A stretch of 63,945 nt of DNA, counting the filler. It is 4 parts of 4 records of this genome, joined end to end, with 100 filler letters (N's around TTAATTAATTAA, not from the genome) between each part and the next. Parts side by side here need not be neighbours in the genome. Positions count along the whole stretch, not along the records: positions 52,086 to 63,945 come from SRR20825019_1690; 3 more parts are not named here. One strand, given 5' to 3'. The notes beneath the pieces are model-generated. The model did no database searches. It had not been told where the DNA came from and saw nothing but the letters and a program-made list of their open reading frames with translations. The translations under genes were made by a program, and so were the position numbers. Shown here piece by piece: positions 10,786-63,945 of the stretch. Position 1 is the stretch's first letter; every line of letters starts with the position of its first letter.

Positions 10786-10833
10786 GTTATGGATTTTGTT
10801 TTCTTATGACAGAGTTATATTTGTTGAGTCTTT

Positions 10834-12047: not shown

Positions 12048-12073
12048 AAAATTATAAGTATATATAATCTTGA

Positions 12074-37357: not shown

Positions 37358-37362
37358 ATCTC

Positions 37363-41800: not shown

Positions 41801-42637
41801 AAGGCAGATGATGCATCTTCGACAACCACTGCCCCGGACAGCGAGGTCTCCAATCCAAAGGACGGCCGCGATGCGTCGGGGCTTCCCTCCAGGGGGGCGA
41901 TCGCTGGTGGCATTCACATTGGGGGGGGGATTACTCTATTGGATCGTCGCGGAGGCGCCGTTACCGAGAGGATAAATAGGGACAGAGAAGTCGACGAGTC
42001 AGCCAAGTACAAGCTATTGTCCAAGGGAAGCCAGGATACTGGCAAGGACAGCTATTTCGCTGGGATGAGCGGGAATGGATTGCGCCAATCTGTAGTTCTG
42101 CCATCACGTCACCAGCGATCCGGCCAAGCTGCAGTGAGCGTGGCGGCACCTCCTGTAGGCAGGTCAAGACAAAAGAGCAATCCTGTCCACCTGCAATGGG
42201 CGGATAAATTCTCGCAGCCGAGAGATGTAGACCAGCAGCATGGTCTCTTCACGCCACGGCGCGGACCGGCCCAGAGGGCCAGGACGGGACCCCCTTCCTA
42301 CATTGTGCCCCATGCCCCTGCTGATGCGGATTCGTTGGTTATATCGCCCAGAATGCGAACTGTGGTCTCATCAGCCGCAGAGAAATCTAGTCCTGCCAGG
42401 TCAAGCAGGCGATTAAGAAATGCGAGCGAGGATGCATTCGCGGGAATGAATGGGCATCACGGAGAGCCAAACGCCGTGGTTGTCAGTGGCGGCAAAGTAT
42501 TCACATCTACCGTCGACACCACCCGGAAGACCAGCCAGCTAGGTTTCAGGGCAGTGAGTGTCGGTTCTCCACTGTCGAGCCATCCGATCTTCACAGGCTC
42601 ACAACCACTTCAAAAGAAGCCCTTCCCTGTCGTTTAA
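38888..42637 (+). CDS. Cytosolic carboxypeptidase CCP1/AGTPBP1-like (M14D tubulin deglutamylase); further 5' exons likely
   Basis: FESRFESANL, TQWYFF, YPYTY, ARVHPGE, NPDGV, DLNR, DMHGHS, FTIEASF; probable intron 38873-38925 joins an upstream exon. Confidence 0.9.
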   Translation: MKIMTLDEGLASSAAHLRRDSLKTLLDALRTNPWHVSLCTASIKAMVSLVKNSDLAETLVVEGGYKLMHYLLDLHITNSEFTGTLVSTLVSLLGVCDKSALDFLGGDGEAKLFDIVGRYGGEMSDIRGLVVQFLKSLYSAEAIVKSICDSLGPEHFRRMLLCLRQLKDPSETQDNLPLGPGVDVKEVVSEIMTKLEFIDVSSMPVVVRKEADEDSSEKEVTTPPKTKSEETDRKVSVTRERSFDGLKWDPFSAVRGVPTPRTGTSLRLVRGAPKFPTPHQAEEPTYAPEDRGSGNAKGDARNMNTSSNTLHRVVFDSVEPCQQASAQRGEKVLNFESRFESANLRRAIQVYENEYDLILNPDFNTNGNTQWYFFMVSNTTKGVKYKFNIINLLKNDSLYNYGMKPLLYSVKSARRSGQGWIRTGTNISYYRNHIKRSQGNYHTLSFTIDFPHDDDSCFLAYCYPYTYTDLMEYLSDIEQDKRGRARHCKKETMCFSLANNEVPVLTITEGVHARPPPKSRKGIILTARVHPGESNASWMMKGTMDFLLSEEPEAVALRENFVFRIVPMLNPDGVINGNYRCSLAGVDLNRQWANPDPKKHPTVYNTKLMIKSEMLKREVVLYCDMHGHSKKKNIFMYGNENHHGEMVSRERIFPVLLSKTTDMFSLSDSCFKVRKDKESTARVVVWKELGIINSFTIEASFCGPNIGANKDCHFNIGALEEMGRAMCRGALEIWGPKPNTEEGHWLHVSNDELMSEAQGMTTDSEDDGSDAEFESAPKKNGKERRRKSTNSEKSKRREERLSPESVPRRPKRSSSKASESQEGSSRATSATSASEISCTEEERRSAPRRLGRPLRGWGAPSAGGEGNDRREVSSKPIDTDSSDGSRPPSEPKSTDEGSQAGHQADRLSQEGSGGAQSDSAASDGPGMSFSPSLFDEESSASQIRKYNPKNRAVGRRRLEQEQSESDPSGKEKADDASSTTTAPDSEVSNPKDGRDASGLPSRGAIAGGIHIGGGITLLDRRGGAVTERINRDREVDESAKYKLLSKGSQDTGKDSYFAGMSGNGLRQSVVLPSRHQRSGQAAVSVAAPPVGRSRQKSNPVHLQWADKFSQPRDVDQQHGLFTPRRGPAQRARTGPPSYIVPHAPADADSLVISPRMRTVVSSAAEKSSPARSSRRLRNASEDAFAGMNGHHGEPNAVVVSGGKVFTSTVDTTRKTSQLGFRAVSVGSPLSSHPIFTGSQPLQKKPFPVV

Positions 42638-42749
42638 TGTATAATCTTATTGTTGGAAATTTTCGAACACCAACCCAGAGAGTGCCGAACTCTGTACATG
42701 CTGCAATTGACCATCAACGTGTAATGGTTTCTTTGTCAGCTTGCCCTCT

Positions 42750-43650
42750 CTAGATGACATTGACATTGATGGTTTGCCCTGGAGGCTGCTGTGGTGCCGC
42801 TCCTCCTTGTTCTACATTGAAGTCTTGATAAGCCTTCCCCTTGACTCCCGCATGGTAAATGCACACTATGCCAAAATAAATGGATAGAGCAACAATGATC
42901 AAATCGAACAAATATATAACTACATCAGTAAATGTTAGCCACACTTTCTTTTCACTTCATTACCTCACCATACTCACCCAGACCAACACCGGAGCTTATA
43001 ATCGCAGTAAGCAGCGCAATCAAAACCAACCCCCAGTAAAGAGTAATCGCGATGATTGCAATAGCAAAGTAAATAGACTTGATGGTCTTTGCAGCCGGGT
43101 GACCCAGCTTAATGTTGTAAGCCAATATCCCACAGCCCAAAAAAGGCACTAAGAAGGCTCCAACAATCTGAAAGATTGCCGCGATAATCCACGGACCAGG
43201 CTCTGCGTACGACTTCACTTAGGGTGAACTAAATATCAAAATAGGGTATGACGTACTCTCAACGGGTGCCATAGGCAGTCCCAACATAAAGATCCTCTCC
43301 CAGTTCACGGACTCCTGCTAGGCCCAATGTTAATATCGACTCTGCCCAAGCCCAAACCAGTATCTCATACATTGGATGCATTCTGCACGTATACCATTTG
43401 CGGATCCCCCCCTACAACACCCGGAGGAGAATTCGGCCCCATGGTAGCTGCACCCGTCAAGATGTAAGTCAGAGTCCACCGTCCACCACAGAAACCTCGT
43501 ACCCGCATGAGGCACCGATGAACTGTATCCTTGCGACGTCACGGGAACTGACCCAGGCGGGTACTGGGTTAACTGGGGGTTGGCGGCAGTAGCGCTGCTA
43601 AAGGCAAACTTCTGGCTTCCCTGCTGTGGAGCCTGGTTTCCCGCTGCCAT
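42750..43650 (-). CDS. Multi-exon membrane protein of unknown family
   Basis: Hydrophobic ORF pieces 42750-42944 and 42952-43218 plus a P/Q-rich N-terminus from ATG 43650, separated by short GT-AG introns; exact junctions uncertain. Confidence 0.6.
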
Positions 43651-44389
43651 AGCTAGTGTGATCTTAACCCTTGGAGAGAACTGGAGACTTATAAGCACTG
43701 CCAGTATTACGGCCCTCCAACTCAGTGGGGACCAGTCCTAGCCGAGCTAGGAGACGACATGTTTGCTGGTCTCTGGGAGTGGTTGTCGGGTAGGTGCGGC
43801 ACTTACGACTTCAGGCTGGCCGGGTCCACAATGTCACCATCACCGTAAGTTATTAGTGGACTCAAACTGACACCACAGTATGTGCTGTATCATTATCACT
43901 CAGCTGAGGGCCGGCCCGGCACTCGTCAGGCAACACTGAAGAAGGACCGGCGCGTGGCAACGCCTGCGTTTCATTGCCGCGTTGAACCCTGAAGCGCGTG
44001 ATCGTGGGTCCCGTGAACTGGTGACCCTAACAAGAGTGCCGGCCGAAAGGCACTCAACTCACCGTAATCCGAGGCACTTGGTAGCCGGGGATCAACTGAT
44101 CTCCGGTGGCGCTCACTGCAACTCCAGTCACAAATAGGTTCCCAAAATAGTTCATTCAAGTATACATTTATTGAGATCTTTATATTTAAATGATGCTTGT
44201 GTGTGCAATTCAGAAACAAGGCTCCTAACGGGATTCCAGTTAGCAAGGGCTGCTCGCCCCGGCGGGGCTGGACCCGTAAGCGAGTGCCGCACCGGCCCGC
44301 GGCCCCGGCACCGGCTGCGGCCCCGCACCGGGCCGCCTCCCGGTCCGGCTCGGCTCGGCCCGGCCGGCCCCGGCCGGGCCTGGGCCGCC

Positions 44390-47348
44390 ATGGCACGGCC
44401 ACCGATGGACTGGGCCAGCCCTGACTACCGGGAGTGGTATCGTGCGCAGGGAAAAGTCAAGTTTGAGCGTACACACTCTTATCTATTTGGGATAACTTAA
44501 GCAAGAGGGAGCAAATTTTTCGAAGAAACCACAGAACTCACTGATGACGGAGTCAACTCCTTCAAACTCTGGCCATGATGGCTCAGGCAGCGAAGAACCT
44601 CAAGTTGACCCGGATGCGGCACCTTATGAAGAAGCCCAGAAAACCAACGCGCTATACATCTCGAATCGAGACGGCACGGTAGAGGCTCCTAGGACTAGTT
44701 GGCCGAAATGATAAGTTCTGACATACGTTGTGTCTTTGTAGGTTATTGACCAAGCGATCGTCAGTCTTCTTCCGAATCTAACGCTTCTGGACGCAACTAA
44801 TAACTTCATTGTATTAGTCAGTGAGAGTGTCACAAGACTGACCAGGCTTGAGGTATACAGTTGTTGTGGTTTCTCTGGATCTGCTTTAACCCCGAGGTTA
44901 GAGTCTTTTCCTGAAAAACAACTCGTTGAAGACAAATAATGCACCAGGGGTTGCTGCTGTTGAAAATATTTTCTCGATAGAGAGTCTAACCGTATGGATA
45001 TGAAAAGCGCACTAATGCCAGGTGCTAACTTGTCGTTAATCAGGAGCTTGACCTATCCTTCAATGACATTGGAACGTTACCTACAGCCGTATCAACTACC
45101 AGGCTGGTGAAGTTGAATATGGGAAACAATGATCTGAGACTGTGCAAGCTGCCTGCTTTCTCAAATTTGAATACTCTGTACCTTCACAACAATCGCAATG
45201 TAAGGCAGCTCCGGAATATCGAAATGAGTGCTCATCCTTGATTCAGCTTGGGTCTGCTGCTCTTGGCGTTTGTGTTCACACGAACTTGACGGACCTGGAC
45301 CTATCGAATTGTGGAATCAGTGCGTCGGCAATGCAATGACACAGCCGCTGGCTAATGTTTCCACCCTTTCAGAATCGCTGCCGACTGAGGTCAAGTCTCT
45401 GGGAAAACTGAAGAAGCTTAATTTGAGCAACAACGACCTCATGGAGTTTCCAGATTCCTTGCTTCACTTCAAAAAGGTATGTGTCGCATTCTGTATGGAG
45501 GTAATGGCTTACTGGGGTACAGTTGATAACTCTCTCCTTGGCCCGCAATGACATTCTCAGCATTCCGGCGGATATTACGAAATTGAATAGTTTGGAGCAT
45601 TTGGGTGGGAGACTCTGGGCACCGACTAACTCGGCAGCATCTAACGGAAGCCTATCAGATATTAGAGGAAATATGCTGACCAAACTGCCGCGTGAAATCA
45701 ACAATATGGGAGCATTGAAAGTTTTACATGCACAAAACAATGAAATCACGGCCCTACCGCTGGTAAGATACTTGCTCACTTTTTCATGTTGATGGTCGGT
45801 TGACCTTGCCATAGATGAAGGATATGACATCTCTGGAAGAGATAGATGTATCCTTCAACAGCATTGACACATTGGACACAGTAGTGATGGAGTATGTATA
45901 GGATAAGGTTGATGCAGCAACGGCTCACACTTCCTTCTAGTTTAAGAGGGACTTGCAGACGCATCAATCTCTCTGCAAACGAGGTTGGCATCGTACCCGT
46001 TGATCTTAAGAAAGAGGTATTCTCTCGGACGGCGATGTGGTCCTTAGTAGCAGGCGGGCTATCCAAGGTCAAGGAATGGATCATTGGTGAAGCTGAGGAG
46101 CAACTAGGGAATGAGGAGCCAACGGAATACTATCGTGGCGCGAGGGAAGAGTTTGATGACACTGCCAGTGAGAGCACTGACGGCGATACCCCTCGAACTG
46201 AGAAATCGATGAGCCAAGTGATGGTTCGGCGGAGCAGTATTGCAAGCGTGGAACTCTGCGATATGGTGTTGGAATGGTGAGGGATCCCTGCGTGCATGTT
46301 GGGCAGGACCCTGATGTAGTTCAGGCTGTCGGTGGACTCCAACGATATTGCTTATGTTCCCCGAAGGATATTCGATGTTTTCAGTTTGACGTTCTTGTCG
46401 TTGAGAGGTAGCATTAGGGTCAATATGAATGTAATGGCGGAGCGCTCATTTTCATTGTAGATAACAAGATGAGGACTCTTCCTGCCGATATTGAGAAATT
46501 GTCGAATCTAGAGGTCCTCAACCTCCAGAATAATCTCTTGACTGATCTTCCACCAGAAATTGGTAGGTTCAACCATGCCGAATGCCCACTGACAGCTTAC
46601 GTTTCTTCTCTAGGAAGACTGAAGCAGCTTCGAGTACTATCACTTTCGCACAACAAGTTTATTGAGTTCCCACGGTCTATTTGGGGGGCAACATCGATCC
46701 AAATCCTTTCTGCGGACAATAATGAGTTGCAGGGGAGAATTCCCCGAGGACTTTACTACATGTATTTCTGTGAAACCTTGTATTGTGCTCCTTTTCTGAA
46801 GAAGATTACAGGCGGGAGCTTCGTTATCTGAACTTAAGTCGGAATCACATCAACGGGCTTCCAAAAGAATTTTCGTCTCTGAAGAACCTGGCTGAGGTCA
46901 ACATGTCCCACAATAATTTGGTTAGGCTTCCTGAAGAAGTTGGAAAATTGCCACGCCTAGTTCGATTGAACCTCAGGAGCAATTTGCTAAAGCGGCTTCC
47001 TGTACGGTTGGCCGAATGCAAGGTAAAGGCATCCCGTCAGCAATATTCATGCATCCAGTCTCACCCGACGTAGAATCTGATCCATCTTGACGTATCATAC
47101 AACGAGCTTCAGGCTTTCGATGGGAACATATACCAAATGCCTCATCTAGTCCAGGTGGGATGATCCGTGAGTGTGCACGCTCTGTGTGGCTGATTCCTTC
47201 CCCTCAGTTGTATCTGCACCCGAACCCTTTCTCGCTGCACGAAGATGATGGCGACATATTAGATGGCGAGGCCATGAAGGAATGGAAGGAACGCCAGATA
47301 GAGAAGCGAAGGAGCCAGCGGAGGCGTAGCTCGGAATCTGTGCATTGA
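44390..47348 (+). CDS. Leucine-rich repeat protein, many short introns
   Basis: GCCGCCATGG Kozak start; successive exons with LxxLxLxxNxLxxLP units separated by ~45-60 nt GT-AG introns. Confidence 0.8.
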
Positions 47349-47393
47349 GCACGGTATGTCTACACTTCAATGTCGGTTGCGCATTTCACCTGG

Positions 47394-48818
47394 CTATTCC
47401 GCCGCACCAAATTCGTTGTATAATGCGATTATCTGGTGACAAACAACTCAGTGCCATATACTGTGAGAGAGAATCATGGTTACCTGAGGTTGGTTCTCAT
47501 CCTCGGCGAGGTTAATCGGAGTCTCGTCCTGGTAGTCCGCTATGGTCAGGTCCCCTCCATTCTCGAGTAGGACCTTCGCATTGTCCACCATTCCAAACAT
47601 AGCCGCCGTATGAAGCGGCGTTCGTCCCCGCTGAGATATTTCCATTTGAGTAAACCCTTTTCATTCAGCCCCAAGATTGACTACTTACGATATCCTGCGC
47701 ATTCACTCTTGCACCAATGGATATAAGCAAACTCAAAATCTGTTTGTCTCGAAACCGTGTGGCCCGGTGCAATGCCGTGGAGCGATGTCTGTCTGATTGG
47801 TGGACTTGCTTAGGGTATGCCTTCGCAATGTGCTCAATGACATCCTGCCCTGCCCAGCGAACAGCGATAAGGAATGGTGACGCTCCACTTGATTCATCAA
47901 CCACTCTTCCATCGGCGCCAGCTTCCAATAGCGCCTTCACCGTCTCAATATCATCATTCTCAATGGCGGTATGCAGTGGCGTCCGCCCGTCCGATGACTT
48001 CACGTTCAGGTTGGCTCCAGCTCCAGCGAGCTTCGCTATAGTAGAATGGTCACCTTCTCTGGATAATTCATGGAGCACCGTCCTGCCCTTGAAAGACCTT
48101 TCTGAGGTCACCGCCTTGATTTTGGCGGGGCTGGCACAGCTCAGATCCATGTCTCGAACGTACTGGCGGGCCTCTTCGTAAGCATTCTCTTCTATCGCTT
48201 CTCTTGGCTCGTTTTTCTGAACGTGATCAGGGCAGTGAGCGCACTACATGCATGCCATATTGTATTCACTTACATTCACAACAGTAGGCTCTGTGGAGCG
48301 GCTGCTGTTGAGCCGGCTCGAGTCAGGCGGCTCCAAGTGAGGGGGGCTGCCCTGGATACTCCGGTGAGGGGTGTCGTGACTCAGGTTGTAGTAACTCGAG
48401 GATGGAGAGAGCGTGCTCATCGAGGCGACGGATGGGTCGCCCACAACACCACTCCTGAGAGGTGTGAGTGTTCTCCGTTTCCTTCAGGCCCTCAGCTTAC
48501 CTGGCTCTTATTATGGCGTGCGCACGGTCGACTCCCTTGAGGTAGTCGTCGGGGTGCTCCCGCGTGACTGCCTCATCCCCGTGCTGGGCCTCCGGGCCAT
48601 CAGACCTCGATACAAACCCATCCTCCGGCCCAAGAGTGACTTCGCAGCCATATATCACCGTCTGGGTCCCAACCTGTATGTAGGAGGTCACTACTCAACT
48701 CCGTTAGGTGGCACGCTAAGGCTGTCCCTACGCTGTTCTCGTATACCGCGCCTCCGCCCCCGCCGCGCCGTGGGGATAGGCACGCTGTGCCACCAAACTG
48801 CTGGAATATCTTTTTCAT
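47394..48818 (-). CDS. Ankyrin-repeat protein, multi-exon
   Basis: GRTVLH, GRTPLHTA, GASPFLIA, STALHRA, GRTPLHTAA; last exon IIALYNEFGAAE* ends at 47394; 5' end tentative. Confidence 0.78.
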
Positions 48819-49705
48819 GGCTTTGTGTATCCGTATGACGCAACAAGCCCGTAAAAGTACACCTCCTACTGGTAGGTCAATCAGAGAAGCTCCGGGAAGT
48901 TAGGGCTGGTGGATGGTAATTTGAAGGCACTGTGACTCGCGCCGCGGCTGTTAGGCTCCACCTGGCCCGAGGTGCCGCGGAACGCGGGGAGGCGGCGGCG
49001 GCCAGCCTGACCCGGCCCGAGCCCGCGGGCGCGTGTCCGCCGCGTTGCGGGGCAGTGCAGGGGGCCCACGGCGCCGGCTCGACCCGCGTCGCCCAGCGCG
49101 GCCAAGCGCCCCCGCCCACTGACCCCGGCAGGCCGCCCGCAACTGGCTCGACCGGCCGGTCGCTGGGGCCGGGGCTTGAGCGGCCCGCCGCTGTGGGGAC
49201 TTTCGAGGGTGATCTCGGATCCCCGAGATATTGATCTCCCTGCGTGGTCTGGTCCGTCCGCCCGGCCGTGTCGCCCAGGGCGCGCCCGCCCGGTGCGCCG
49301 CGCGGCTGCCTGGCCGCGGCGGTGTCATTGATGCGCCACCGCCCCCCTTGGGCCAGCGAGGCCAACCTTCGGCCAGGCTGCGGGCCCCGCGGCCCCGGCA
49401 GCCCGCGCCAGGCCCGCCGGCCGGTGCCGGGCCGGGACAGCATGTGGCCATGCTCGGACCATCATCGGATGGCAGTCCCGAGCTGGTTGCCGCTGGCCCG
49501 CGCAACCTGGCCCGTCCGGCCGCGCTGGCGATGAGTGGCGGCCTCGAGGCTGACAGAGCGCTGACATGCCGTATGTGAAGTCATTTGCCCAATGACACCT
49601 TGTCTCGACGCGGGTGTTGGACCAAGCCCATGCTTCCTGGGATATAAGAGGGCGGAGGGGTCCTGTTACTAAAAACTCAGGTCACCTAGGCGTGGCACCA
49701 GCGCT

Positions 49706-51985
49706 ATGCCGCCCAAATACAGTACGCCACCCGAGAGCCCCAAGTCGACTGCAGCCCGTCTCATGGCTGCAGCGCGGGCAACACTATCAGAGCGGACGCA
49801 GGACGACTCCCTGAAGCGTAAGGGGTTGGTGTGGTGTATATAGTTTGCTGACTAGGCTGCCAGGTCAAGTGGGTGGCCGCCGTACTGCGTCCACAACATC
49901 ATTGAGTGGCAGTGAAGAGTACAAAAGGGTTGAGAACTGCCGCCGGAAAAAAATCACAGAGTTGGATCTCGGCAAGCTTGGGTTGGAGGATACGCCCGAT
50001 GGAACGTTTGAATTGCAACATCTTGTCAAACTGAATATGTGTAACAACAAGCTTAACTCAGAGGCTGTAGTGGGCATTAGCGGGTTGAAGAACTTGGTGA
50101 AGCTCGACCTTCATGGAAACATGCTCACGTCCTTTCCGGACCTAGGGGAAATGTCCAGCCTCACCACCCTCTTCCTAGATCGGAATAAGATAGAGTACAT
50201 TCCGACGGACAGCGTCCTAAAGTTGAAAAAGTTGACCACGCTGAACGTGAGCATGAACAAGTTGAAGATGCTTCCCGGTGCCCTGGCATATCTGTCCTGT
50301 CTGGCCGGACTGAATATTTCTCACAACCAGCTGAGGACGATTCCGCCTTTCCTCGGGGTCATTTCTACTCTGAGAATGCTTGAGGTCAAGGGAAACCAGG
50401 CAGAGAACTTGAGTGAGGCAACACTGGCCGCTGGGAGCGCCGCTGTTCTCTCTCAGCTCCGAAAAATGTTCTTGCAGGTTCATTTGATTGACTCCGACGA
50501 ACAGATTTATGGCGACGTGAATGACAGTTTAGCAGTCGAGGTCGAGGCTCTCAGGAAGTCATTAGTACAAGTGAAAGATGAGCTTGAGAAGGTCGAGTTC
50601 AGGAAGGAGGAGGTGGAGGCACAATTGGCCGAGCGAGAAGATGAACTACGGGCTGCGAGAGACGAAATTGAATCTCTAAAGTTATCAAAGCCGGTGCAAG
50701 AGCCGCCGTCAGTCGAGGACAATGAAGCCCTAACCAGACGTGTGTCGTTGTTGGAGAGCCAGCTCGCGACCAAGACTGCGGATAATGCCCGGCTCGCAGC
50801 TGGTGGAGACTTGGATACGTCAACAGACTCAGGTGGCAAGAAGGAGAAAAAGATTTCAAATCTGAAGGCGCAGCTCACGGAGGCCGCTGATCTCATTGAT
50901 CAACTGAACGTTGCCATTGAAACGGAGAACCGCAAGTTCCACGAGGCCGATAACAAACGCATTGAGGCTGAAAAGGAGGCAATCATGCTACGGAAGAGAG
51001 TTGATGACGCGATGAATAGACCCGGGGCCGCTGGGTCAACTATAGAGAGCGAGCTGATGGAAGAAAACAAGGAATTGACCAACAAGGTAAAACAGCTGGA
51101 AGATGAGATTGAAGGTCTGATGGCCCAGATGCTTTCTGAGGAGGAGCAGCTTGAGACCCTCTCACAAGAGCTTGGTCATGAACGCAATCGTTCGCTCACT
51201 TTGACAAGTGAAATGACACGACTGGAGGAACAGCAAACCGTACTCAAGGCAGAACACCGCAAGAAATTGAACGAGGTGCAGTCCCAACTCATGCAGACTG
51301 GCCAATTGGTATCAGAGATGTCGTCGGCTATGAAGGTGACGGCGGACAAACTGGCCTCCAAAAGCAAGGAAAACATTGAGTTGAAAAAATCTGTCAAGAA
51401 GCTCAAGGCTGATATCAACGAAAGAGGTGGCACTGTAGATGAGAGCGTGTCCTCGCCTGTGCTGTCGTCTGCTGGAGACGACAGGCACCTAGCCATAGAG
51501 GATCTTGAAAAGCAGAACTTGGAGCTCCGCTCAAAGATTGCTGAGCATGCAATGCGAAATTCTGAGCTACTCAGTGAAACAGAGGGTCTGGAAGAGAAGC
51601 TTCAGCTCTCGGAATCCCGTGCGAGGAAATTGGAGGCGGATCTTGAAATTGCCCTAGAGCAGTCGCAAGCAAGAGTAGAACCAGTAGTGGATACATCCGC
51701 TGGAGTTAGTGACAAGAAGGAGAATATCCAGAAGGAACTAGATGCAGCTCGTGTAAAGCTGATCGAGTCAAACGAGCGAATCTTGCACCTGGAAAAAGAT
51801 GCATATGCCCAGAAAGATGAAAGCAACAAACTTGAGGATGCCCTCCGGGCGTTAGTAGGCGAACACAAGGACCTTCAAGAAAAGTATGACAGCGTTTGTA
51901 ATAAGATAGAAACAACAAACAAAGATGGAAATGAATCTGCACACGGGGAAATAAATCGCCTTGAGGAGGAGCTGGCGAAGGTGCG
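49706..51985 (+). CDS. LRR + long coiled-coil protein (3' truncated)
   Basis: Exon 1 MPPKYSTPPESPK.., 46-nt intron 49818-49863, about 7 LRRs, then E/K/L-rich heptads. Confidence 0.8.
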
Positions 51986-52085
51986 NNNNNNNNNNNNNNN
52001 NNNNNNNNNNNNNNNNNNNNNNNNNNNNNTTAATTAATTAANNNNNNNNNNNNNNNNNNNNNNNNNNNNNNNNNNNNNNNNNNNN
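51986..52085. other. Artificial contig linker
   Basis: 44 N + TTAATTAATTAA + 44 N. Confidence 0.99.
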
Positions 52086-52121
52086 CCGAGGCGAAGGATT
52101 GCAGCAGTCATGTCCGAGCGT

Positions 52122-52342
52122 GGAACCACCGGTCACCGGCGACCGTGGCTTCAAGAACCGAGGGGAACTATGGGCTGGTCTGCTGGCGGTCACATGCGGG
52201 GCGCGGTCATGCCATGGCCTTGGCCCGGGGGAACCACAGTGATTTTGGTGGAGGGGAACTATCGCCCGCCGCCGGCGGGGGAACCAAGCTTTCGGTGGAG
52301 GGGGAACTCAGTGATCCGATCCTGATGTCCGGCAGGGGAACC
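52122..52342 (+). repeat. Cluster of GGGGAAC(C/T) motifs with an imperfect 50-bp tandem unit
   Basis: CGGGGGAACCA..GGTGGAGGGG(G)AACT at 52226-52260 and 52276-52308; further copies at 52122, 52162, 52335. Confidence 0.6.
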
Positions 52343-52801
52343 GCTGCCCACGCCGCGCGTTCAGACCCCCGAGGCGCCGAACCGGCGGGCCCCCGACTGA
52401 GGACGTGAACTGATCGGAAGGCCAACCGACGCGGCGGGATACTGATCACGCTCGGTTGCCGCCCGTTCCGTACGCCGAGGCCGACACTGCCGCGTGAAAC
52501 CCGACTGAGCTGCCAACGGCCCGGCCGGCGGGGGGCGGAGCCCCGCGGCCGGCGTGCGCGGCCGGGCCCGGCCCGGCCCGGGCTGTGCCATGCCTTAGCC
52601 GCCCCCCCGTACGTTGCACCGGCCTTGGCAGCGGCCGTCCCGGGACCGAGGGCCTCGGGGCTGGCGGCCCGGCCTGGGTGTACCGTAACTTCATAACTCG
52701 AGCCGCGCTCCGCCGGCGTGTTCAGCACAGTGTCGACACACAGATATATCTCATTGAGTTTTTTAGTTTGGACTAGTAGTACTGAAACAAGAACCACAGA
52801 G

Positions 52802-54162
52802 ATGGCAACTGCGAAAGTACTCTCAAGACTGACTGGCCCGGCCGGCGCGGCTGCTGCCCGTGCGCGCCTGGCAGAGGGTCTTCCCCTCACTGTTGCACTT
52901 CTATTGTTTGATGGCGTTGAAGTGCTCGACGCCTGCGGCCCCCTCGAGGTACGTCGGCCCACCATATGACCTAGCTAGTGTTCACCTATATCGATCTCCA
53001 CACCCTCAACGCCACTTATTCCTGAAATGCATTGAAACACTAGTGTACAATACTTCATCTGAGAGACACGTTGCTTAGGTTTTGAGCAAAACTCGCTGGT
53101 GCAACAACGCAAGCGCTCAGAGCGAGCACCCATTCATTGTTCGTACGGTGGCGACGAAGCCGACAGTGCAGATGACAGGTATAGTGGCCTTGTCCAGTTC
53201 TGGTCGTCTTAAGTAGTGCATGGTGGAAAGGGGTAGCTGATTCGTATGCGTCAAGGGCAACTGAGCGTGAATGTGGCATGGACTCTTGATGATCTCGAAC
53301 GACAAGGACACGAGGGGGTGGATGTGCTGCTGGTACCCGGAGGTGAGGGTAGCCGATGGCTTGGGTGCGGCAGGCGTTAACTAGGGGATTCGTTCAAGGT
53401 CAGGGAACCCGTACGGTCGTGAACGATCCGACAATCCAGAGGTTTCTCCGCCGGGCACTCACTGGGCAGCTGCCCTGCACAGAGAGTATGGACTGGAGGA
53501 TTTCGGTTGACTTGCGTGAGATTAGGTGCTAATGAAGGGGTTCTGCAGGCAGACTGAGTATCGTCATGTCCGTCTGCACGGGCGCCGCCTTGTTGGGCAA
53601 GGTACGTTCCACTGCGTCCGGCCAGGCCGACGCGCCCATCGCAACTGCCACTCGCACTTGCCATCGATTAACTCTGTTTACTGAGTTGATCTTCGTCTCT
53701 CGTACAGACTGGTCTCTTGGGCGGAATGAAGGCCACAACTCACCACCGTGCATTTGACTTTGTCGAGGCGAATGCAGGTTTGAGCGAGTATTGTGTGCTG
53801 CGTTTGTGCTTGCCGGCTTACGTTGGACGATCAACCGCAGGTGGCATGGAGCTTCTGAGGGGACCGCGGGCTGTGGATAACGGCAGCGTCATATTCTCAG
53901 GTGGGTGAAACCTCTATACTCAAGCATCGGTTGTGATCTCTCACTGATGCGCCTGACGAATCATCTCTAGCCGGGATCTCTGCCGGAATAGATATGAGTC
54001 TATACACGGTGGGCAAGGTATGTGTACCGCCCATCATTTGATTCCGTTTCGTATAGTGGCGACTCGCTGATCTTCATTCCTACACAGCTCCTGGGTGCGA
54101 CCGTGGCTGAGGAGACGGCCGCCGCCATGCAATATGAGTATTCGAGCATCGATGTGGCATGA
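52802..54162 (+). CDS. DJ-1/PfpI family protein, isocyanide hydratase (InhA/ICH)-like, 9 exons
   Basis: Manually spliced across 8 GT-AG introns: VALLLFDGVEVLDACGPLEVL..DVLLVPGG..MSVCTGAALL..ATTHH..VDNGSVIFSAGISAGIDMSL..MQYEY; Ala/Arg-rich N-terminus. Confidence 0.85.
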
Positions 54163-55101
54163 GATTGAAGTGGCTCACAGCCAAAGATATTCGTCCCTCG
54201 GGCACCACAGTTAATGATCTGTCCGGCCATCTGCGGGAGTTCAGAAAGCCGGGGCGAGGGCGGGCCGGCGCGGCGGCCCAGAGGGTGACGGGCCCCGGCG
54301 GTCCCAGACGGCGGAGGAGGCGGGACTGGTTTCGTTCTCACGGGAGCTAGCTCGGGCCCAGGTGCAGGGCGTAAGCATCCCTGAAAGGTCCAACTCGGAG
54401 ATGGACTCGAGGGCTAGCCACCCTCTTACCCTCACTGATGAGTGTCCGATGAGGGTGGCGTAGTACGCATCAATTTTTATGATTCTTGTTTCGGGTGCTG
54501 TGTGAACTCGTGATGGATCGGATGCATCATTTCCGATTCCCATGCCGCCGCTGCGTGACCGGACTGGCCGGAGTCCAATCAGCCGCGCGCGTAAAGGCGC
54601 GCGGTCCAACCGTTTGATTGACAGTCCGCGCCGTTCCGTTGCCGCCGACGGTTCATTCAGATGCGGCCCGGGCACGCCGGGCTGGCGCGTAACTAGTTTA
54701 CGGCAACCTGAACTTGGTGGCCCGCCTGCTGGCGGTGGTCAGGTTCCGTTCCGGCCTGCCTCACTTGAGCACGCGGAACGTCCGGCGCCCCGCCGGCCGG
54801 CGGGCCCGGGCGCCGGCCCGGGCGGACTGTGCACGCGACATTCTACTGAGCAGCCGCGCCGGCGTCCGGGGCCGCCGGCGGGGTGACGACCCTAGCGTAC
54901 TCAACGGAGGCCAGCCGCCCACGGCGCGCCCGGACTGCTTAGCAAGTCCAACATGTCATGCTTCTTCTTCCCTCCCGGCCCACGGCGCGCCATGACAAAC
55001 GGTGTGAAATATATTCCCAGTACGGACTGCAGTGACCCTAGCGCCAACTGCTCCAAAAGTTACACCCCAGGCGCTCCCCATCTCAGTCAATCAACCAATA
55101 A

Positions 55102-58100
55102 ATGGGTGAAGCGGGCATGGCCGCCGGCGGGCCAGGGGCGAGTGTGGCGGTCGGGGGCTCAGCCAGCCCACTCTTTGGCTGTGTTCCGCGCATTGTGTTG
55201 AGGGAACTTGTGGCAACTCTGGGAAATCCCGCACCCCAGCCTGCCCGTGCCCATATCATGCGGAGCTCTGGGGCAGTTCTGCTCGTGGATGTGTCAGGAT
55301 TCACGTCTGAACTGAACGCGGTGTGTGACTCGAAAGGTTCACGGGGTGCGGTCCAGATCGGAGCGGAGGGCTTCAGCGACAGGCTCTCGCGTGTGCTATC
55401 GCGAGTTATTGATACGATCTATCGCTATGGTAAGGCGGCCCATGTCATGATACAGGCTCTAGCTGCACGAACTGACTCTGTTCGCAGGGGGCGATGTTGT
55501 GAACTTTATCGGGGACGCGTGCTTAGTGACCTTTACCTCGGTGCCGAACCCGGCGCTGGAAGATGACCGGAGGCGGCCGGTGGAGCGAGCGGTCGCGTGC
55601 GCTATGGAGCTCGTCGCCACCTCTGTCGAGCCAACTGATGCCACCAGTATGGCGCCACTATCGCTCGGGGCCGGGATGAGAGGTTTAGATCTGCACGCCA
55701 CCTTGGCTACCGGAGATTTTGGCGTCGTCGTTCTGGAGTCCAACGGCGCCACGGAGCCTTCCGGGAAGCCGACCGTGCCCTTCGCGGAGGTCCTTGTAGA
55801 TGGACCGGCGATGAAGTCGCTGGCTGCGCTGGCACGTGCGGGTTCTCCAGCCGGCTCCGTGACTGTGGACCTGACCACACGAACTTTGCTACAGCCGTCC
55901 AAGTCGCTAGAGTTTGAGTCGATTGGCGATGGCGACCGGGCCTTTGTAGTTAAGGGCATCGTCCCTAGGGAAGGTTGGGGCCTGCGAGTTGGAGGGGACG
56001 ACATTGCAATTCCGGACGGAGCGCCGCGGGGGGAGCTGCTGGAGAGACTGCAGCAACACCTCCTGGAGGCATGGGTGAGACTGCCGGGGGACCTGCTGAC
56101 CAGGCGTGAGATTCGTCAGTACACGGCGGAGGTCCGGCCTGTGACCCTCACGTTTCTCTGGCTCGGGCCGGCAGAGTTGTGGGGACTTGATACCACAGCC
56201 GGCGCCGAGCGATTGCTGCGGGTGTGTGAGGAAGTTTATTCGATTTGCAAGTGAGTGTTCTGGCCCCTCGCAGAGGGCGGGGGATATTTGATGTCTTGTG
56301 ACATGGGCTGGTGGGATGTGCCTCAGGTGAGGCTGGCAGGGCTCTACTAGTTTAGTACTGTGCCGGCTAAGCCGGCGAACTAACCCGAGTTGGGGTGCAT
56401 AGGGCGGTGAAGCGTTGGAATGAAGTTGTGTTTTGGCGTCTCTAACCCTTTTGCAGTCAATTCGACGGACGGGTTCAGAAAGTAGTGCACGACGAGAAGG
56501 GTATTATTGTCATGCAAGCCTGGGGGGACCCGCATCATAGCCACGAGGACGATGCAACCCGAGCGGTCCGCGCGCTGTTGAGCCAGGTACCTTAGGGCGT
56601 GTGGGGAACGGGGATCCGAGCACCCGCTCCGCCTCGTCAAAAGTCTCTTATCTGACCATCCGTTTCAGGCCCGCGCTATTCAGGCGATGGAAGGACTCTT
56701 ATGCAATGCAGGTGTCGCCACCGGGCCAGTATACATCGGGCCGGTAGGGAGTAACGCTCGGAGCACTTATGATATCATAGGTAAGCTGCTTCACCCCAAC
56801 CCCCGCCTGAAACTGGTCGGACTTGGTGTATCCCCCTTGTCCTGGAGCCATCGTTACTTATTCTGTATTTTCAGGAAATGCCGCGAACCTTGCCTCCCGG
56901 CTGATGGCCGCAAAGAATGGATTGATGTGTGATGACGCCACCGTGCGCGGTTTAAGCTCCGTGGACACGTCTTCAGTCACGCTGGCGTTGCCGGGGCTGG
57001 GGTTGGTGAGTTGCCGTCCCTTGATCCACAATCGCCCCATCTGAAATACCTTCAGGTCACGGCACACCGTCTCATTCCAACTGAAAAGAGCCTTCTTCAG
57101 CGCGGGGCCTCGGGGTGGTCATCTTCCAGTGCGTTGGCGTCGCCCCCCCGGCGCATGGCCGGTGCTTCATCATCCAGCGCCACATCAACAATCTATTCCG
57201 CGTTATGGCCGAGCAAGGTCTCTGGCGTCACAAGCAGCCCGAGTGACGCTGGCTTCCCGCAACTTCCGGGCCGCACCACAGCCCACGACAAACTGTGCAG
57301 GGCCTTGGAGAGCTTTTTGGTCGACCGGCAAGGGTCGACTTCAAGTGATGAAGGCATGGGTCGCGAGCCGGCAGCGTGCTTGTTCATTGAAGGAGCTGCT
57401 GGTAGGTTTCACATCATTCTTTTCACTTGTGAAAGGGCCAGTTACACCTGCGCGCCCATTTGGCAGTCACCATGTGGTATCATGTCTCGACTGACGCGGG
57501 CTTTGCAGGGTTGGGCAAATCGCACCTGCTGTCGGAGTTAATGAACGAGTACTTGCCAGCCATCCAAAACATTCCGTCCACGATCATCCGGGCGACTTCA
57601 TGCGATGTATATTCGCCTTACCGTTGTGTGGAGCGCGCGCTGTGGGAATTGTTCATAGAGCCAGCGAACCGCGACATCGGAGGGAATGAATCCGACATCT
57701 TTCGCAGCGTATTGGATGATATCTGCTCACTCGCGGACGCTGAAGACACGCGTCGGAAGACCGTTCAGGAGAACGCGGAAGCCCTCACACGTTTTTTTGT
57801 AGGTGAGATCGAGACGGATGGCGCGGGACCGTTAGCAGGCCCGGTGTTGCTAGATTTGTGTGGGCTGTGCCTGGATTCGAGGAAGCCCGGCAACACTGCT
57901 GTGATGATTGTGGTTGAAGATTTCCATTGGCTGGACCTTTCCTCCGTTAAGCTCCTTCTGTCCCTTCACACCACCCATCCCGGGTCCGTATGCCTATTGA
58001 TCAACACACGGCCGCCCTCGGAAATGTACAAGGAGCTGCAAGATGTTTATTCAAAGTTTCTTGCGCTGAGTGAAACGATTCACATCTCGCTAAATCCCCT

Positions 58101-60921
58101 TGAGGTAACGGATGTTGCTATCATGGTAGACACGCTTCTGTCCAAGCGGCCCGGGTACAACAGGATCTATGCACAAGCAATGGAGTACAACACGGCACAA
58201 CGGCTTCCCGGCCACGCGCTTCCCATGCGGCTGTACGCGCGGCTGGCAGATCTTGGTGGGGGCAGGCCCCAATCTGTAAGGGATCTTTGCGCTGCAATGC
58301 TGCCGACAATGCTTAAGGCATTAGTGGGATTGGAAGAGGAAGACGACGCCTGCTTCGAGGATAAATGGCTTTCGCTGTGGCTCACGATTAGAGACGAGCC
58401 CAGCGTGGATGACGGCGGGAGTGCCCTCCAGCGGTCCCTCATTGATCGGTTGCCCCTGGAACAGCAAATGGTTCTGAAGGTATGTACTATAGTATAATGG
58501 GTATATTGGGGTAGTAGTCTGGGGATTTGTCGATCCACTTACACCAGGACCGCAGGTGGCGTCGGTAATCGGTCCGACGTTCCAAACCAAGACCCTCCTG
58601 AAGGTGTTTCCAGAAGAATTACGTCTATTGATCAATATCCCCGTGGCACTGAGACAGCTGGTTGAGGTCTCTTTCCTGACGGTGGCACAGTCGGCGAAGG
58701 GGGCGGCCGGATCATGTGTTTCCTATACGTTTACCCATGTCACGTACCTATCCACAGCATATAGCATGCTGGGGTGGACCCAGCGGGCCCGAATACACAT
58801 GAACATGGCGGAGTTGGTCGAGGCGGGCGACTACGATGGCGTGTCGGCATCCGGTTCCGCATCCCTCGTGGCGTTCATGTGGGGCCGTGCCCTGGAGGGC
58901 GTCCGCGCGCGTTACGATGGCGATCTTGGCCGCGAGATGCTGGGAGATCTATCCCGGGAGAAGCTATCTCGCGTGGTTGCGGTCCAGGAGTCTGCGGGGG
59001 ACGCCGCGTATCGCGAGGGGTCATTCAGCAGTGCCAGCACCCTGTACAGTAACGCCCTTCACACGATCAATGTGTACGGACACCTCCTGCTCAGTGATTC
59101 ACCACTGGCCCGGGCCGGTCTCCAGCCCGACAGCTCCGACAGTGAAGTCGCGCGAGCGCGGTGGATGGTCCTTAAAGAGGCCGGGGCGCTCGAGACTGAA
59201 TTTGGCATTCTGGTGAAACTGACCGACACCTATTGCAGTGTCAGGGGGTGAGTGCGGGTGATGCTGAGAGTTCATGAACATATAGTAATTGTTTCCGTTG
59301 CTTGCAGCTTCTCTCATGAGGATACGAAACGATCGTTTGCGCTGCTGGAGGACCTCAGCGAATGTGTGGTCAAAGGAGAGTCTACTGAAGGCATTTCACC
59401 AGAGCACGCGGGTATGTACATCGATGCCCTGGTCCGGCAGCACTTGAGCCATAGCCAAGGTAGCTCGTATCACATGGCAGTCAAGACCGGGCGGAAGATG
59501 GTTGAGACAGCCAAGGCAATTGGCGGCGCTGACCAGCGCATCGAGGTGAGTACACGTGCCGGATGACGAAGCTGGCCTCACGAATAGAACTCTTTACACA
59601 GGCCGAAGCAAACCTAGTGGTGTCGTTGTGTCTGTTTGGCAAGATCAAAGAATCTTCGGAGCTGCTGCGAGTGCTTCACTCTGAAATGGAAAATCGCCGG
59701 CGTACTGGGGAGCCGTTGCATAATTCAAGCTTCTTCCTCACCCCGCCAGCTTTGATATGGGGCTTTGGCAGTGTCAGCGCCCTTTTCCGAAACGAGAGGG
59801 GCTTTTATAGTGATCTTTGGAGTAATTTTGAATGGCTGATGAAGAGCCAGCCGCGGCCGGCGCAAGATGGGATGTTCATGGCAGTGGCGGTGAGTCCGCT
59901 GTGTGATGGGACGGGGTCATGACTCCAAATCTGACGATGTGTGCAGGCTCTGGCATTGGCTGTGGTTGGAGACTATGAGAAATCGCGGGTGACGATGCTT
60001 CGGGCCAAAGACGTGGGGCACACAAACCGGCTTGCGATGCCAATGCGATACTGCAAATTTTTGGAGTCGTTCCTCCTTCTTTGTTTCGACAGTTGTGACT
60101 TGGCCGGGGGGGCGCTTGATACCGACTCGTTTGATGAGATCATGCTCCCCTGCTTATTAGGTACCGACAGCGGGCCAGTGGGGCCAGGGCGATGCTGTGC
60201 GGGATGGGAGGGGGCAATTTGGCGAGAGGATGCGTCGGTTACGGACGCTTGTGGCGGGATGATGTCGGTGGAGCTTCTGTCAACCATGTTGGACATTGTG
60301 GCTTCCTTCCCATGGGCACTCTACTATCCCCTCGTCGTCCGCGCCTGCATTGACAACGCCGAGTTTCCAATGGCGATGGCGCTGCTCTGGCAGTGGGAGG
60401 CCAAACGGACAAACGATCCCGGGAACACCTTCCTGTTAAGCGAGCAGCTGCGTCTGAATGCCGAAATGCTAATGGCCGTCCGAGCCGCGCCGAGTCGCGT
60501 CCGGCCGCCGTTTGTTGAGGTACCAAAAGCGTTTACGGAGGAGCTCAGGCGACGAGGCGGTGTTCTGGGGTCGGAATGGGATGAAACTGTGCTGGGCCTG
60601 GATAGATCCGATGACCGCATTCTATCGCTGCTGGAACAAGCCGCGACTCAGGCCAGGGACGCCGGGTCTACGGTATTTGAAGCAACGGTATCGGTGACGC
60701 GTGTGCACTTTGAGATGCTGCGTGCACGCGAGTTCAAGGCAAATTCAGAGAAAGGAGCTCCACAAGCCTGCCCTTGCGGAGAAGTGCGGAAACAAGCGGC
60801 ACACCACCTGGGCGACCTTATGTCGAGGGTGGGTCCACCTGAGGATGATCATGGCTGTACCGCAGTGGGCGCTGCGCGGAAGTTGGCGGGCATCTTGAAG
60901 GTGGGCCAGCCTGAGCACTGA
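55102..60921 (+). CDS. ADCY10 (soluble adenylyl cyclase)-like protein: two class III cyclase domains + STAND NTPase + helical region, multi-exon
   Basis: VDVSGFT, GGDVVNFIGDA, AEVRPVT, HDEKG, HEDDATRAV, GVATG..GPVGS.RSTYDIIGNAANLASRLM, Walker A GAAGLGKS, Walker B VVEDFHWLD. Confidence 0.87.
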
Positions 60922-61537
60922 CGACCGGACGGATGGTTCCCCGCCGCCAGCCGGACCGGGACTGATCACTGAATTGTGGGGGCAAATGAGGCTCAAGCGG
61001 GTGCCGTATGACTCAGTGACTGTACCAAAGTGCCAAAAGGACCTATAATTAGAAAAAGGCTCAGGGATGCCTGGCCTGCGGCGCCCCCGGCGTCGCGGCG
61101 CCCGGCCCGGCGCCGCCCGGCCTGGGCCCGCGGGCGATTCACCCGCCGCGAGCCGGGCGCAGTCTGAGCCGGCCGACTACGTTGTTGCCCAGGGCGCTCA
61201 AGCAAGCGGGCCCCTGCGGAGCCCCTGCGTGCGTGCCGAGAGCGGTGACCCTGACCTGCCCGTCCTAGGGGCCTGAGCGTGACCGGTGGCCACTGACTGG
61301 CCACTGATGAGTCAGGCACGCCGGACCGTGGATCTTCACTGACGGCGCGCGGCACACACCGCATCTGGCACTGATACCATAAATATAAATATAAACGAGT
61401 TGACGAGAGTGCACAATCACCCAGAGCTTACGGAAGCCGTCTTTAGTGTTCCTAGCTAGTGGCTGCGATAGACGGGTTTTGGTGTCGATCTGTGGTACCG
61501 CCCGCTCTGCTTGCTGACAAACGAAAGTACTGTCGTC

Positions 61538-62635
61538 ATGACGTCGATAGACGAGTTGTGGCGGCGTTGGCGTAGTGAGGCGGCGGCCGGCTGCGGGGTG
61601 CTCAGTCAGTCTAAGGTCTCCTCAGCACCGTTCAAGAGCCTCGTCGCAGCCGCGAAGAAGGCGGGCATCCCTGTGTTCCAACAGAGCAGACTCACCCTGG
61701 CCACTGCTCTGGCTCAATATAGCAAGAACTTTGACACCGATGCCAGTCATGACCATATAGCCCGCCACCCCCGACTTCCTGCCCTGGTGCGTAAGAAGGG
61801 CGAACGTATCATGCGGCTGCAGGCTGTGGACAGCATCACCCGCGTTGCCAGACTTGTGCAAAGGCGGGGCCTCCAAGGACCAGTCGAGTCTGAGGACTCC
61901 GGGGATGAGGTCCCGGTCAAGAGACGGAGGGTGGATCTGAGCGCGACGACAGCTGCTGAAGCTGACCCAAGCGGCGGTTCGGGACGGGCTGGATGCACGG
62001 AAGGTACCTCTGAAGAGCGGGACAAATGGTTGATACGAGAGACGGTGCCCGTGACAGGGGCTGGGGGAGATGCTATGGAGACGGAGGCGGTGGTGACGGA
62101 TTCGGGTAGTACAGATGTTTTTAGTGTGAAGATGCTGGTTGGAGAATACGTGGATGTGATGAAGGAATCGATCCGCAACCCGTCCAAGCGGCTGCGCCGG
62201 CCGCACTACCTGGCAGGATGGGCTGTGGGGGACCCTGCTTGTCACGTGCCCGGGGACTGTCTGAGCCAACCACGAGAGGTGGGCGACGGACTGGGCCGGC
62301 TGGTTGGATGCTCTATGAAAGAAAGGCGGACTGACTGGACAGGGAATATCACCATGACCACAACAAATATTGTCAAGTTCCGCGCCCTTCGCCCCGGGTT
62401 GTACTCATTGAGGATACTAGTTCCGGTTGACTTCGACTGCTGGCGTGGCACCCGTGGCCCGCGCTACAGATCTGCGAAAGTCATTGTCATTCAGGTTCTG
62501 GACAAGACACCGAGGCCGGGCGAGCCACCCCTGAGCGACACGGTGACGGCACGAGGTGTCTCAGACCACACATACAGCGAGCTTTCACTGGATCTACTCT
62601 CTTCACCTGCGCACGACATATCCTCAGTATATTGA
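61538..62635 (+). CDS. Hypothetical protein, possibly nuclear
   Basis: ~365-codon ORF downstream of a GC island; PVKRRRV NLS-like motif; no family recognised. Confidence 0.55.
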   Translation: MTSIDELWRRWRSEAAAGCGVLSQSKVSSAPFKSLVAAAKKAGIPVFQQSRLTLATALAQYSKNFDTDASHDHIARHPRLPALVRKKGERIMRLQAVDSITRVARLVQRRGLQGPVESEDSGDEVPVKRRRVDLSATTAAEADPSGGSGRAGCTEGTSEERDKWLIRETVPVTGAGGDAMETEAVVTDSGSTDVFSVKMLVGEYVDVMKESIRNPSKRLRRPHYLAGWAVGDPACHVPGDCLSQPREVGDGLGRLVGCSMKERRTDWTGNITMTTTNIVKFRALRPGLYSLRILVPVDFDCWRGTRGPRYRSAKVIVIQVLDKTPRPGEPPLSDTVTARGVSDHTYSELSLDLLSSPAHDISSVY

Positions 62636-62947
62636 CGGCATGGCACCCCCGCTCGCATTCTAATCCGAATATGGTGGTGTGATTCTAAAGGCAGTACCTC
62701 GGTTCTCCGGACACAACACTCGTCCCAATGTTCGCTCCATTTGTTTACCGAATGTGTGCTTTCGCGAGAAAACACTATCGCCATGGTGTGAAGACCCCTC
62801 GACCGCCACCACGCGACGGAGCCGCAGCTCTCGGGGCCGGCTCCATCAGTGCAGCGGTTGGTTGGTCCTCCGTATCATTCCACCATCGTGAGCAGAAGGC
62901 CCTGGGCTCACCGGATGGACGGCCGCACTTGGCGGCAGGGCAGTGAC

Positions 62948-63757
62948 TTACGCCTGGGTGAGGCCCAACTCCTCATCGGTGGCAATGCGGTCATACTTGT
63001 CCTTCGGGGGAGAAGGCCGCTTGGACCAGTGTGGTTCGAAGACAAACGATGACAGGGCCCTTCCCTTCGGAAGGGACCCATTGCCCGACCCCACGGCGTA
63101 GTCATAGTAAAGCGTCACGATCTCCTTCTGGCTCACCTGCTGACACGCTGGGTGCGCAAGGCATGCGTCCCTCCACTTACGCACACGGTCGTACTTGGAG
63201 TCCTCCGGAAGGTCGAAGCCCTCATAGTATTCCAAGAACCAGAAGCGCATGAACATGGGCGTATACACGGTCTCCGCCAGGCCAAACTTATCGAATAGGA
63301 AGACACCGTCCGGGTTGTGGACCCGCAGAAAGTCGTCTAACCACGCGTAGTGGCCGAGGAGGGTGTCACGCAGGCCCGCCGTCTTCTCCTTATCGGTGTT
63401 CATCACGTATAGATACCCAGCCATGGTGAAAGGTCCTTCCTTGGTCATCATCCATGATTCAATGGCCCGCTTGTACGGGTCCTCCTGCGCCACCGCCTCG
63501 CCCCCAAACGCCTCCTCCACGTATTTCAAGATCACCATGCTCTCCTTCAGCACCTTCCCATCGCCAAGGTCCATGAGGGGCAGCGCTGTGGTACCACGTG
63601 ACAACTTCAGCAGAAACTCCTCCCTCGGCTTGGTGATGTCCACCACCCGAAATTCAACCGCATCCGTCTTGCCCTTGAGATGCAGCAAAATTTCTATGCG
63701 CTGAGAGAAGGGGCAGACCGGGATGTGGTAGAGGATGGGACGGTTCGTCGCTGACAT
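62948..63757 (-). CDS. Omega-like glutathione S-transferase, LigG-type glutathione lyase family
   Basis: YHIPVCPFSQR, GTTALP, LKESMVIL, TPMFMRFWFLEYYE, LYYDY..G.GNG, SSF, RP.PPKDK..ATDEELGL match the LigG pattern as recalled; intronless; alternative start 63799. Confidence 0.85.
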   Translation of the reverse strand: MSATNRPILYHIPVCPFSQRIEILLHLKGKTDAVEFRVVDITKPREEFLLKLSRGTTALPLMDLGDGKVLKESMVILKYVEEAFGGEAVAQEDPYKRAIESWMMTKEGPFTMAGYLYVMNTDKEKTAGLRDTLLGHYAWLDDFLRVHNPDGVFLFDKFGLAETVYTPMFMRFWFLEYYEGFDLPEDSKYDRVRKWRDACLAHPACQQVSQKEIVTLYYDYAVGSGNGSLPKGRALSSFVFEPHWSKRPSPPKDKYDRIATDEELGLTQA

Positions 63758-63945
63758 GTCAACAAAATACTTCTCGAAGTGAGAGGCGAACAACCTCATC
63801 TATGAATAGACCGCATGGCGCCCTATTGTGTCCAGAGTGCACGCCCTCGGCTGGGGGTTTCGGAAGGCGCTACAACTCAGCGCACTGCGCCGTTCCTCTT
63901 TGAGTGAGAACTCGGCCTGGCTGCCCCCCCCCCCCCCCCCCCCCC

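Follow-up and report, generated by a model that had tools for sequence, protein, structure and literature searches.

The best-described relative of the gene reported here is LigG of Sphingobium sp. SYK-6 (PDB 4G10, 4YAP and 4YAV; the excerpted text of PMC4138524 ascribes 4G10 to LigG of the SYK-6 strain), an omega-like cysteine glutathione transferase (Cys-GST) that acts as a glutathione lyase. According to the excerpt of PMC4858972, HPV is released when Cys15 of LigG becomes linked by a disulfide to the glutathionyl sulfur of GS-HPV, a second glutathione (GSH) regenerates the enzyme and yields GSSG, and the C15S variant is inactive; the characterised members of the LigG family act on (betaR)-GS-HPV in the literature excerpts. 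Nu-class lyases (NaGSTNu, LigQ and E. coli YghU) are described as catalysing the same overall reaction on GS-HPV as LigG, but they belong to another GST class in which a second bound GSH, and not an enzyme cysteine, makes the attack (excerpt of PMC5892560). The literature on LigG-type glutathione lyases, as represented by excerpts, consists of bacterial work, one plant-engineering study and reviews, is set in the context of lignin breakdown and mentions no eukaryotic gene.

Here we describe a LigG-type gene, hereafter GST, in a window of 63,945 nucleotides (the whole stretch of DNA that was analysed). We consider it probable that the gene encodes a LigG-family omega-like Cys-GST, that a marine microbial eukaryote has this gene in its nuclear genome and transcribes it from there, and that the gene is of alphaproteobacterial, most likely Rhodobacterales, descent. 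Direct evidence comes from the family to which the protein belongs, its conserved active site, the gene's linkage to spliced genes, its presence on a cDNA-type contig and the bacterial identity of the nearest relatives.

The GST gene and the active site of its product

The gene lies in an uninterrupted open reading frame on the minus strand (62948-63799), whose first ATG would give a protein of 283 aa. A 1,213-nt contig of the public run X1 spans 62583-63773 and is collinear with the window, without any skip, over the whole coding sequence and 365 nt past the stop codon. Sixteen non-genomic letters stand at the 5′ end of this contig and agree with the final part of the SMARTer/Iso-Seq 5′ primer given in a methods passage. 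Because this contig starts at 63773, the usable start codon is the ATG at 63757, which defines an intron-free coding sequence of 269 aa plus stop (62948-63757, minus strand), a 16-nt 5′ leader (63758-63773) bounded by the adaptor letters, and a 365-nt 3′ flank or 3′ untranslated region (62583-62947). The upstream in-frame ATG at 63799 and the 14 extra codons that it would add (63774-63799) fall outside the observed transcript and are probably not translated; bacterial homologues of 264-267 aa cover just 92-95% of the 283-aa reading. With its 5′ end at 63773, the transcript thus encodes a protein without an N-terminal extension over its bacterial relatives, which points to a cytosolic location. 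An intronless GST of about 269 aa with a CPFS active site, as the earlier note had described from the letters of the window, is therefore what the transcript contains.

Pfam recognizes GST_N_3 (1.4e-12) and GST_C_2 (2.4e-06) in the product, and the search against known structures returned LigG (4G10) with an E value of 8.7e-78 and 265 bits (264.8), aligning query residues 22-282 (283-aa numbering) to chain residues 8-265 and so reaching the end of the chain. The Pfam domains and the full-length match indicate a GST fold, comprising a thioredoxin-like domain at the N terminus and a C-terminal helical domain. By hand count, approximately 124 of the 261 aligned columns are identical (~48%). Human GSTO1-1 and the plant lambda and DHAR Cys-GSTs share the fold, the catalytic cysteine and the deglutathionylation/thiol-transferase chemistry, as described in excerpts of PMC5399005 and PMC4138524. 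However, the next-best structures (omega, tau, lambda and DHAR) fell far behind the 265 bits of LigG, with scores of about 45 bits, E values of about 1e-10 and alignments that break off sooner. GSTO1 (44.6 bits, E 1.1e-10) aligned over residues 23-193 only and was not the closest structure over the whole length; the omega, lambda and DHAR alignments ended between residues 193 and 231. The LigG-specific C-terminal extension (approximately the last 50 residues) is aligned in GST, whereas all other GST alignments end by query residue ~231 and do not include it. The 55 matched PDB sequences contained no Nu-class structure.

We then mapped the substrate-contact residues of LigG listed in the excerpt of PMC4858972 onto the product through its alignment with 4G10. 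Thirteen of the 15 contact residues are identical, among them Cys15, which is encoded at 63713-63715 (minus strand) within the CPFS motif, and the remaining two are conservative replacements. On the glutathione side, all nine residues are retained (Cys15, Ile12, Phe17, Thr55-Ala56-Leu57-Pro58 and Glu70-Ser71); in the aryl-ketone pocket (Ser109, Tyr113, Leu117, Tyr214, Tyr217 and Asn223) identity holds at four of six positions, with Ser109 replaced by Thr and Leu117 by Met, and the cap loop that reads GGGNG in LigG reads GSGNG in GST. The same contact-residue pattern is found in 80 bacterial orthologues, Cys15 being invariant in all of them (80/80), and GST departs from these orthologues at 3 of the 101 columns that are at least 95% conserved. 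All of the motifs that had been listed in the earlier note are present and aligned with those of 4G10, and the full-length match together with the conserved active site upholds its assignment of the protein to the LigG family. Judged by sequence, GST is a LigG-family, omega-like Cys-GST.

Relatives, composition and descent of the gene

A search of 5.8 billion protein clusters gave 2,522 matches, the best of them 72-74% identical to GST, whose own protein was absent from the collection. Among the best 120 of the 2,522 matches none exceeded 74% identity, and the ten that bear an organism name are all bacteria, mostly Rhodobacterales; likewise, wherever members of the top clusters carry an organism name, it is Paracoccaceae or Rhodobacterales. 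From prokaryote genomes, the best 80 of 458 relatives were kept (top identity 74%, Roseicyclus salinarum), and from metagenomes the best 80 of 349 (top identity 72%). The Rhodobacterales GSTs recovered in this way (from Roseicyclus, Nioella, Limimaricola and Paracoccaceae MAGs; 264-267 aa) are uncharacterised proteins, 61-74% identical to GST, which share its length, its active site and a well-supported clade with it but differ in the GC content at third codon positions (GC3) of their genes (0.83-0.91 in the nearest), in having Shine-Dalgarno (SD) motifs and in their housekeeping neighbours.

In a quick maximum-likelihood tree of 90 rows, GST fell within a 14-row set composed entirely of Rhodobacterales (SH-aLRT 96), itself part of a 44-row set (SH-aLRT 99), and a quick tree of 62 rows gave supports of 94 and 99 for the same two sets. 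The 44-row clade around GST is dominated by Rhodobacterales. An approximately unbiased (AU) test did not reject a tree in which the 43 bacterial rows exclude GST (p-AU 0.725), with a constrained likelihood higher than that of the free quick tree; instead of being nested within the sampled bacteria, GST may thus be their sister. Its terminal branch is long (0.35-0.40, compared with a median of 0.09-0.18), and in a 210-row FastTree that included all 120 top matches it formed a lone long branch, joining an 11-row group of unnamed sequences with a support of only 39. The members of this group lie on densely coding contigs with a GC content of 0.66. Four loci (L015, L089, L090 and L091) were considered as mis-binned eukaryotic contigs and ruled out, given a GC content of 0.66 and an ORF cover of about 1.0. 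The tree comparison had a divided outcome: GST sits in a Rhodobacterales-dominated clade and no eukaryotic clade was seen, while the AU result leaves room for both nesting and sistership.

The base composition of the gene differs from that of its bacterial orthologues. The GC content of the coding sequence is 0.574, within the range of six host exons or ORFs (0.523-0.625) and below that of the ten nearest bacterial orthologues (0.634-0.684), and its GC3 of 0.770 lies between the host values (0.575-0.689) and the bacterial ones (0.826-0.910). The synonymous-codon likelihood ratio per codon is -0.006, whereas host controls range from +0.045 to +0.229 and bacterial controls have a median of -0.205; since this value is neutral, the codon usage is intermediate rather than host-like. 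As the earlier note had remarked, there is no clear SD sequence: motifs of the type GGAG, GAGG or AGGA are absent upstream of the GST start and present in 51 of the 80 bacterial orthologues. The lack of an SD motif also sets GST apart from LigG, as do the 16-nt leader and the 365-nt 3′ flank on cDNA.

These observations bear on an alternative to recent acquisition, namely that GST belongs to a wider, vertically inherited eukaryotic clade of LigG-type proteins and derives from an ancient transfer or was ancestral to the protist lineage. Several features would suit such a history: GST is ~26% diverged from every sampled bacterium and has a long terminal branch, its composition is partly host-like, and the AU test allows it a place outside the sampled bacterial clade. 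In addition, its Atlas cluster is just 84% Bacteria among members with a recorded phylum, and protist proteomes are sparse in the labelled collections. No eukaryotic relative or clade was seen in the collections searched, whose labelled entries are prokaryote-only or mostly unnamed, so that eukaryotic relatives could have been missed. Against such a history, the best 120 of the 2,522 matches include no sequence above 74% identity and no tight partner of GST in the tree, and the weakly attached nearest group comes from the GC-rich, densely coding contigs described above. Furthermore, GST is devoid of introns whereas the neighbouring genes are intron-rich, and the excerpts of the literature searched contain no LigG-type gene in a eukaryote. 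We therefore regard a vertically inherited eukaryotic clade as unlikely and favour descent from Rhodobacterales.

The GST contig and its spliced neighbours

The window is made up of four contigs placed end to end (1-12248, 12349-36702, 36803-51985 and 52086-63945), with artificial spacers of the form N44-TTAATTAATTAA-N44 at 12249-12348, 36703-36802 and 51986-52085, the GST contig beginning right after the last of these. Because the spacers split the window, statements about genes on the same contig as GST are valid only within 52086-63945. Two of the four contigs are bacterial. The second (12349-36702) is 100% identical to positions C1:2153147-2177500 of a closed 4.2-Mb bacterial genome (G001) and carries genes for FtsK, DnaJ and a TonB-dependent receptor, indicating that a bacterium was co-assembled with the eukaryote. 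The first (1-12248) is densely coding, with a GC content of about 0.40 (about 0.35-0.42) and bacterial-type genes for TyrRS, an amidohydrolase and a PMT_2 glycosyltransferase; it has no match to G001 and represents a second, different bacterial component. On the third contig lies the 3.7-kb exon (38888-42637) that the earlier note had named CCP1 and set beside GST in weighing the lack of introns; it encodes an M14 carboxypeptidase according to Pfam and is not on the GST contig. The third contig also shows a spike in GC content (0.78 at 49001-49500) just upstream of an ORF for a 713-aa leucine-rich-repeat protein (49845-51985) that reaches the contig end.

The GST contig (52086-63945; 11.9 kb), of which GST is the last gene, is eukaryotic. 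We mapped four public runs onto it, among them X1, which is registered under a single coded organism. Between 52946 and 53969, X1 contigs skip seven GT..AG intervals of 56-130 nt, and joining the flanking exons produces one open frame. The X1 contigs are therefore spliced and of cDNA type, and the putative DJ-1/PfpI-like gene to which these exons belong (52780-54474, plus strand; its name is taken from the earlier note) contains at least seven introns. One X1 contig stops at 54474 and has a tail of 12 letters without a counterpart on the GST contig, which may mark the start of a further exon of this gene. Downstream, a long plus-strand gene (55102-60921) changes frame between successive ORFs, and its sole Pfam domain is an AAA_16 ATPase domain in the exon at 57433-58497 (plus strand); the exons previously read as a cyclase contain no cyclase domain in Pfam, even at E<=10. 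Hence, of the two multi-intron neighbours with which the earlier note had linked GST on one contig, the intron-rich DJ-1-like gene is confirmed, whereas the cyclase label is without Pfam support, AAA_16 being the only domain found. The AAA_16 exon had no homologue at near or longer lengths, and the nearest Atlas AAA_16 clusters are 100% bacterial; the region 55102-60921 may be another bacterial-type (STAND ATPase) gene with acquired introns.

A convergent ORF of 374 aa without any Pfam family (61511-62635, plus strand) separates the long gene from GST; its coverage comes from an X1 contig and from two runs of marine metagenomes. The X1 contig that carries GST terminates within this ORF, with no loose end at 62583. 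The final 53 nt of that ORF (62583-62635) also belong to the 3′ flank of GST on cDNA, a sign of tight packing or of overlapping transcripts. Contigs of the runs leave 54858-57629, 58026-60005 and 61194-61585 uncovered, and the intervals 60839-61694 and 61935-62583 are bridged by none of them; these gaps speak neither for nor against any reading. Beyond the GST start, the contig ends in a run of 22 C residues (C22; 63924-63945, plus strand), 167 nt upstream of the start codon, where the assembly may have broken off at the homopolymer or the sequencing may have introduced an artefact.

Within 62583-63773, seven substitutions and two indels distinguish the X1 contig from the window. Only two of the substitutions, both synonymous and at third codon positions, lie in the GST coding sequence; the other five and both indels are in the 3′ flank. 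X1 thus represents a second, non-identical source in which the gene is intact, has the same flank and is under constraint. From X2, a marine metagenome, three 151-nt pieces match at 99-100% identity, one of them crossing the GST stop codon into the 3′ flank, and two of the X1 variants are present in X2 as well. No poly(A) tail was seen on the X1 contig carrying GST; X1 is classed as cDNA-type by its splicing, the run type being unrecorded.

As the assembly is mixed with bacteria, the prior probability of contamination is raised, and we considered whether the contig end with GST on it (about 62.6-63.9 kb) stems from a bacterial contaminant and was chimerically joined to the eukaryotic DNA. Besides the bacterial contigs in the assembly, such an origin would account for a gene that has no intron, stands last on its contig and shares 72-74% identity with proteins of Rhodobacterales; moreover, 61935 is joined to 62583 in the window assembly only, and no contig of any run bridges this interval independently. 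Against this, the X1 contig has the same 365-nt 3′ flank, enters the neighbouring ORF and starts with a template-switch adaptor, and at GST X1 diverges from the window to a degree comparable with that in the DJ-1-like gene. Each of the ten nearest bacterial orthologues has a higher GC content and GC3 than GST, which also lacks an SD motif, and 74% is the highest identity among the best-ranked matches from bacterial genomes and metagenome contigs. Nor does the co-assembled bacterium G001 account for the gene, as it has no GST orthologue (best match 33% identical) and no DNA match, and there is no repeat at the putative join or elsewhere near GST that could have caused a mis-join. In our assessment, a chimeric contig end is very unlikely.

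Taken together, the bacterial identity of all labelled close relatives, the linkage to spliced genes and the cDNA-type contig support horizontal transfer of GST, with the bacterium as the probable donor and the eukaryote as the recipient, and the earlier proposal of such a transfer gains from the spliced DJ-1-like gene on the same contig, from the adaptor on the cDNA and from the bacterial nearest relatives. Rhodobacterales-like bacteria are common associates of marine protists and algae, and it is a familiar pattern that protist genomes contain detoxification genes from bacteria. GST accordingly does not represent a new kind of biology: it would add a well-documented single-gene transfer from Rhodobacterales-like bacteria, in which the process and the family are known and the host is new. 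An intact, fixed and transcribed LigG-type gene in a marine eukaryote would extend the host range of the family.

Predicted reaction and genomic context of the orthologues

Because the contact residues are conserved, GST is expected to catalyse the Cys15-dependent deglutathionylation of keto-thioether conjugates. By analogy with LigG, the Cys15 thiolate would attack a thioether conjugate of glutathione at its sulfur (the typical conjugate being an alpha-glutathionyl aryl or alkyl ketone), releasing the de-glutathionylated ketone and leaving an enzyme-S-SG disulfide, which a second GSH would resolve to yield GSSG. The likely substrate class is thus modelled on that of LigG, and the gene provides a concrete candidate for a protist enzyme that deglutathionylates keto-thioether conjugates.

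The genomic setting of GST differs from that of LigG, which in SYK-6 is encoded in an operon with ligD, ligF and ligE (ligDFEG; excerpt of PMC7691349), whereas GST lies on a eukaryotic contig. Neither a LigD-type dehydrogenase nor a LigE, LigF or LigP beta-etherase is encoded on the 11.9-kb GST contig, and none recurs at the 80 bacterial orthologue loci, where no neighbour family occurs in more than 20 loci and a second GST cluster was not seen. The recurrent neighbours at these loci are LeuA-like, MORN, SDR (17/80), photolyase-related, LysR, MreB and cupin genes. The large Rhodobacterales clade of LigG homologues lies outside lig operons. As the nearest bacterial orthologues are found outside beta-etherase clusters and no partner is present on the GST contig, a role in lignin beta-aryl-ether catabolism, the setting that the earlier note gave for LigG, is not supported.

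A broader proposal is that GST is one piece of a bacterial-style, glutathione-dependent catabolic route for aryl ethers or keto-thioethers that a marine protist took over from associates of the Roseobacter group. We hold this to be highly improbable; if true, the eukaryote would process lignin-derived or algal phenylpropanoid glutathione conjugates, and a beta-etherase-type pathway is undescribed in eukaryotes. That GST acts as the terminal enzyme of a lignin beta-etherase pathway in the eukaryote, as LigG does in Sphingobium sp. SYK-6, is likewise highly improbable, because the retained aryl-ketone pocket residues and the activity of characterised family members on (betaR)-GS-HPV, with which it would agree, are set against orthologue loci at which no gene set like the ligDFEG operon recurs and a contig without any partner gene. 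One arrangement at the bacterial loci deserves mention in its own right: in the 17 loci with an SDR gene (for example, L007:4253-5014), this gene is found on the opposite strand, directly upstream of the LigG homologue. It is the only recurrent neighbour that might be linked in function to the LigG homologue, and LigD is also an SDR.
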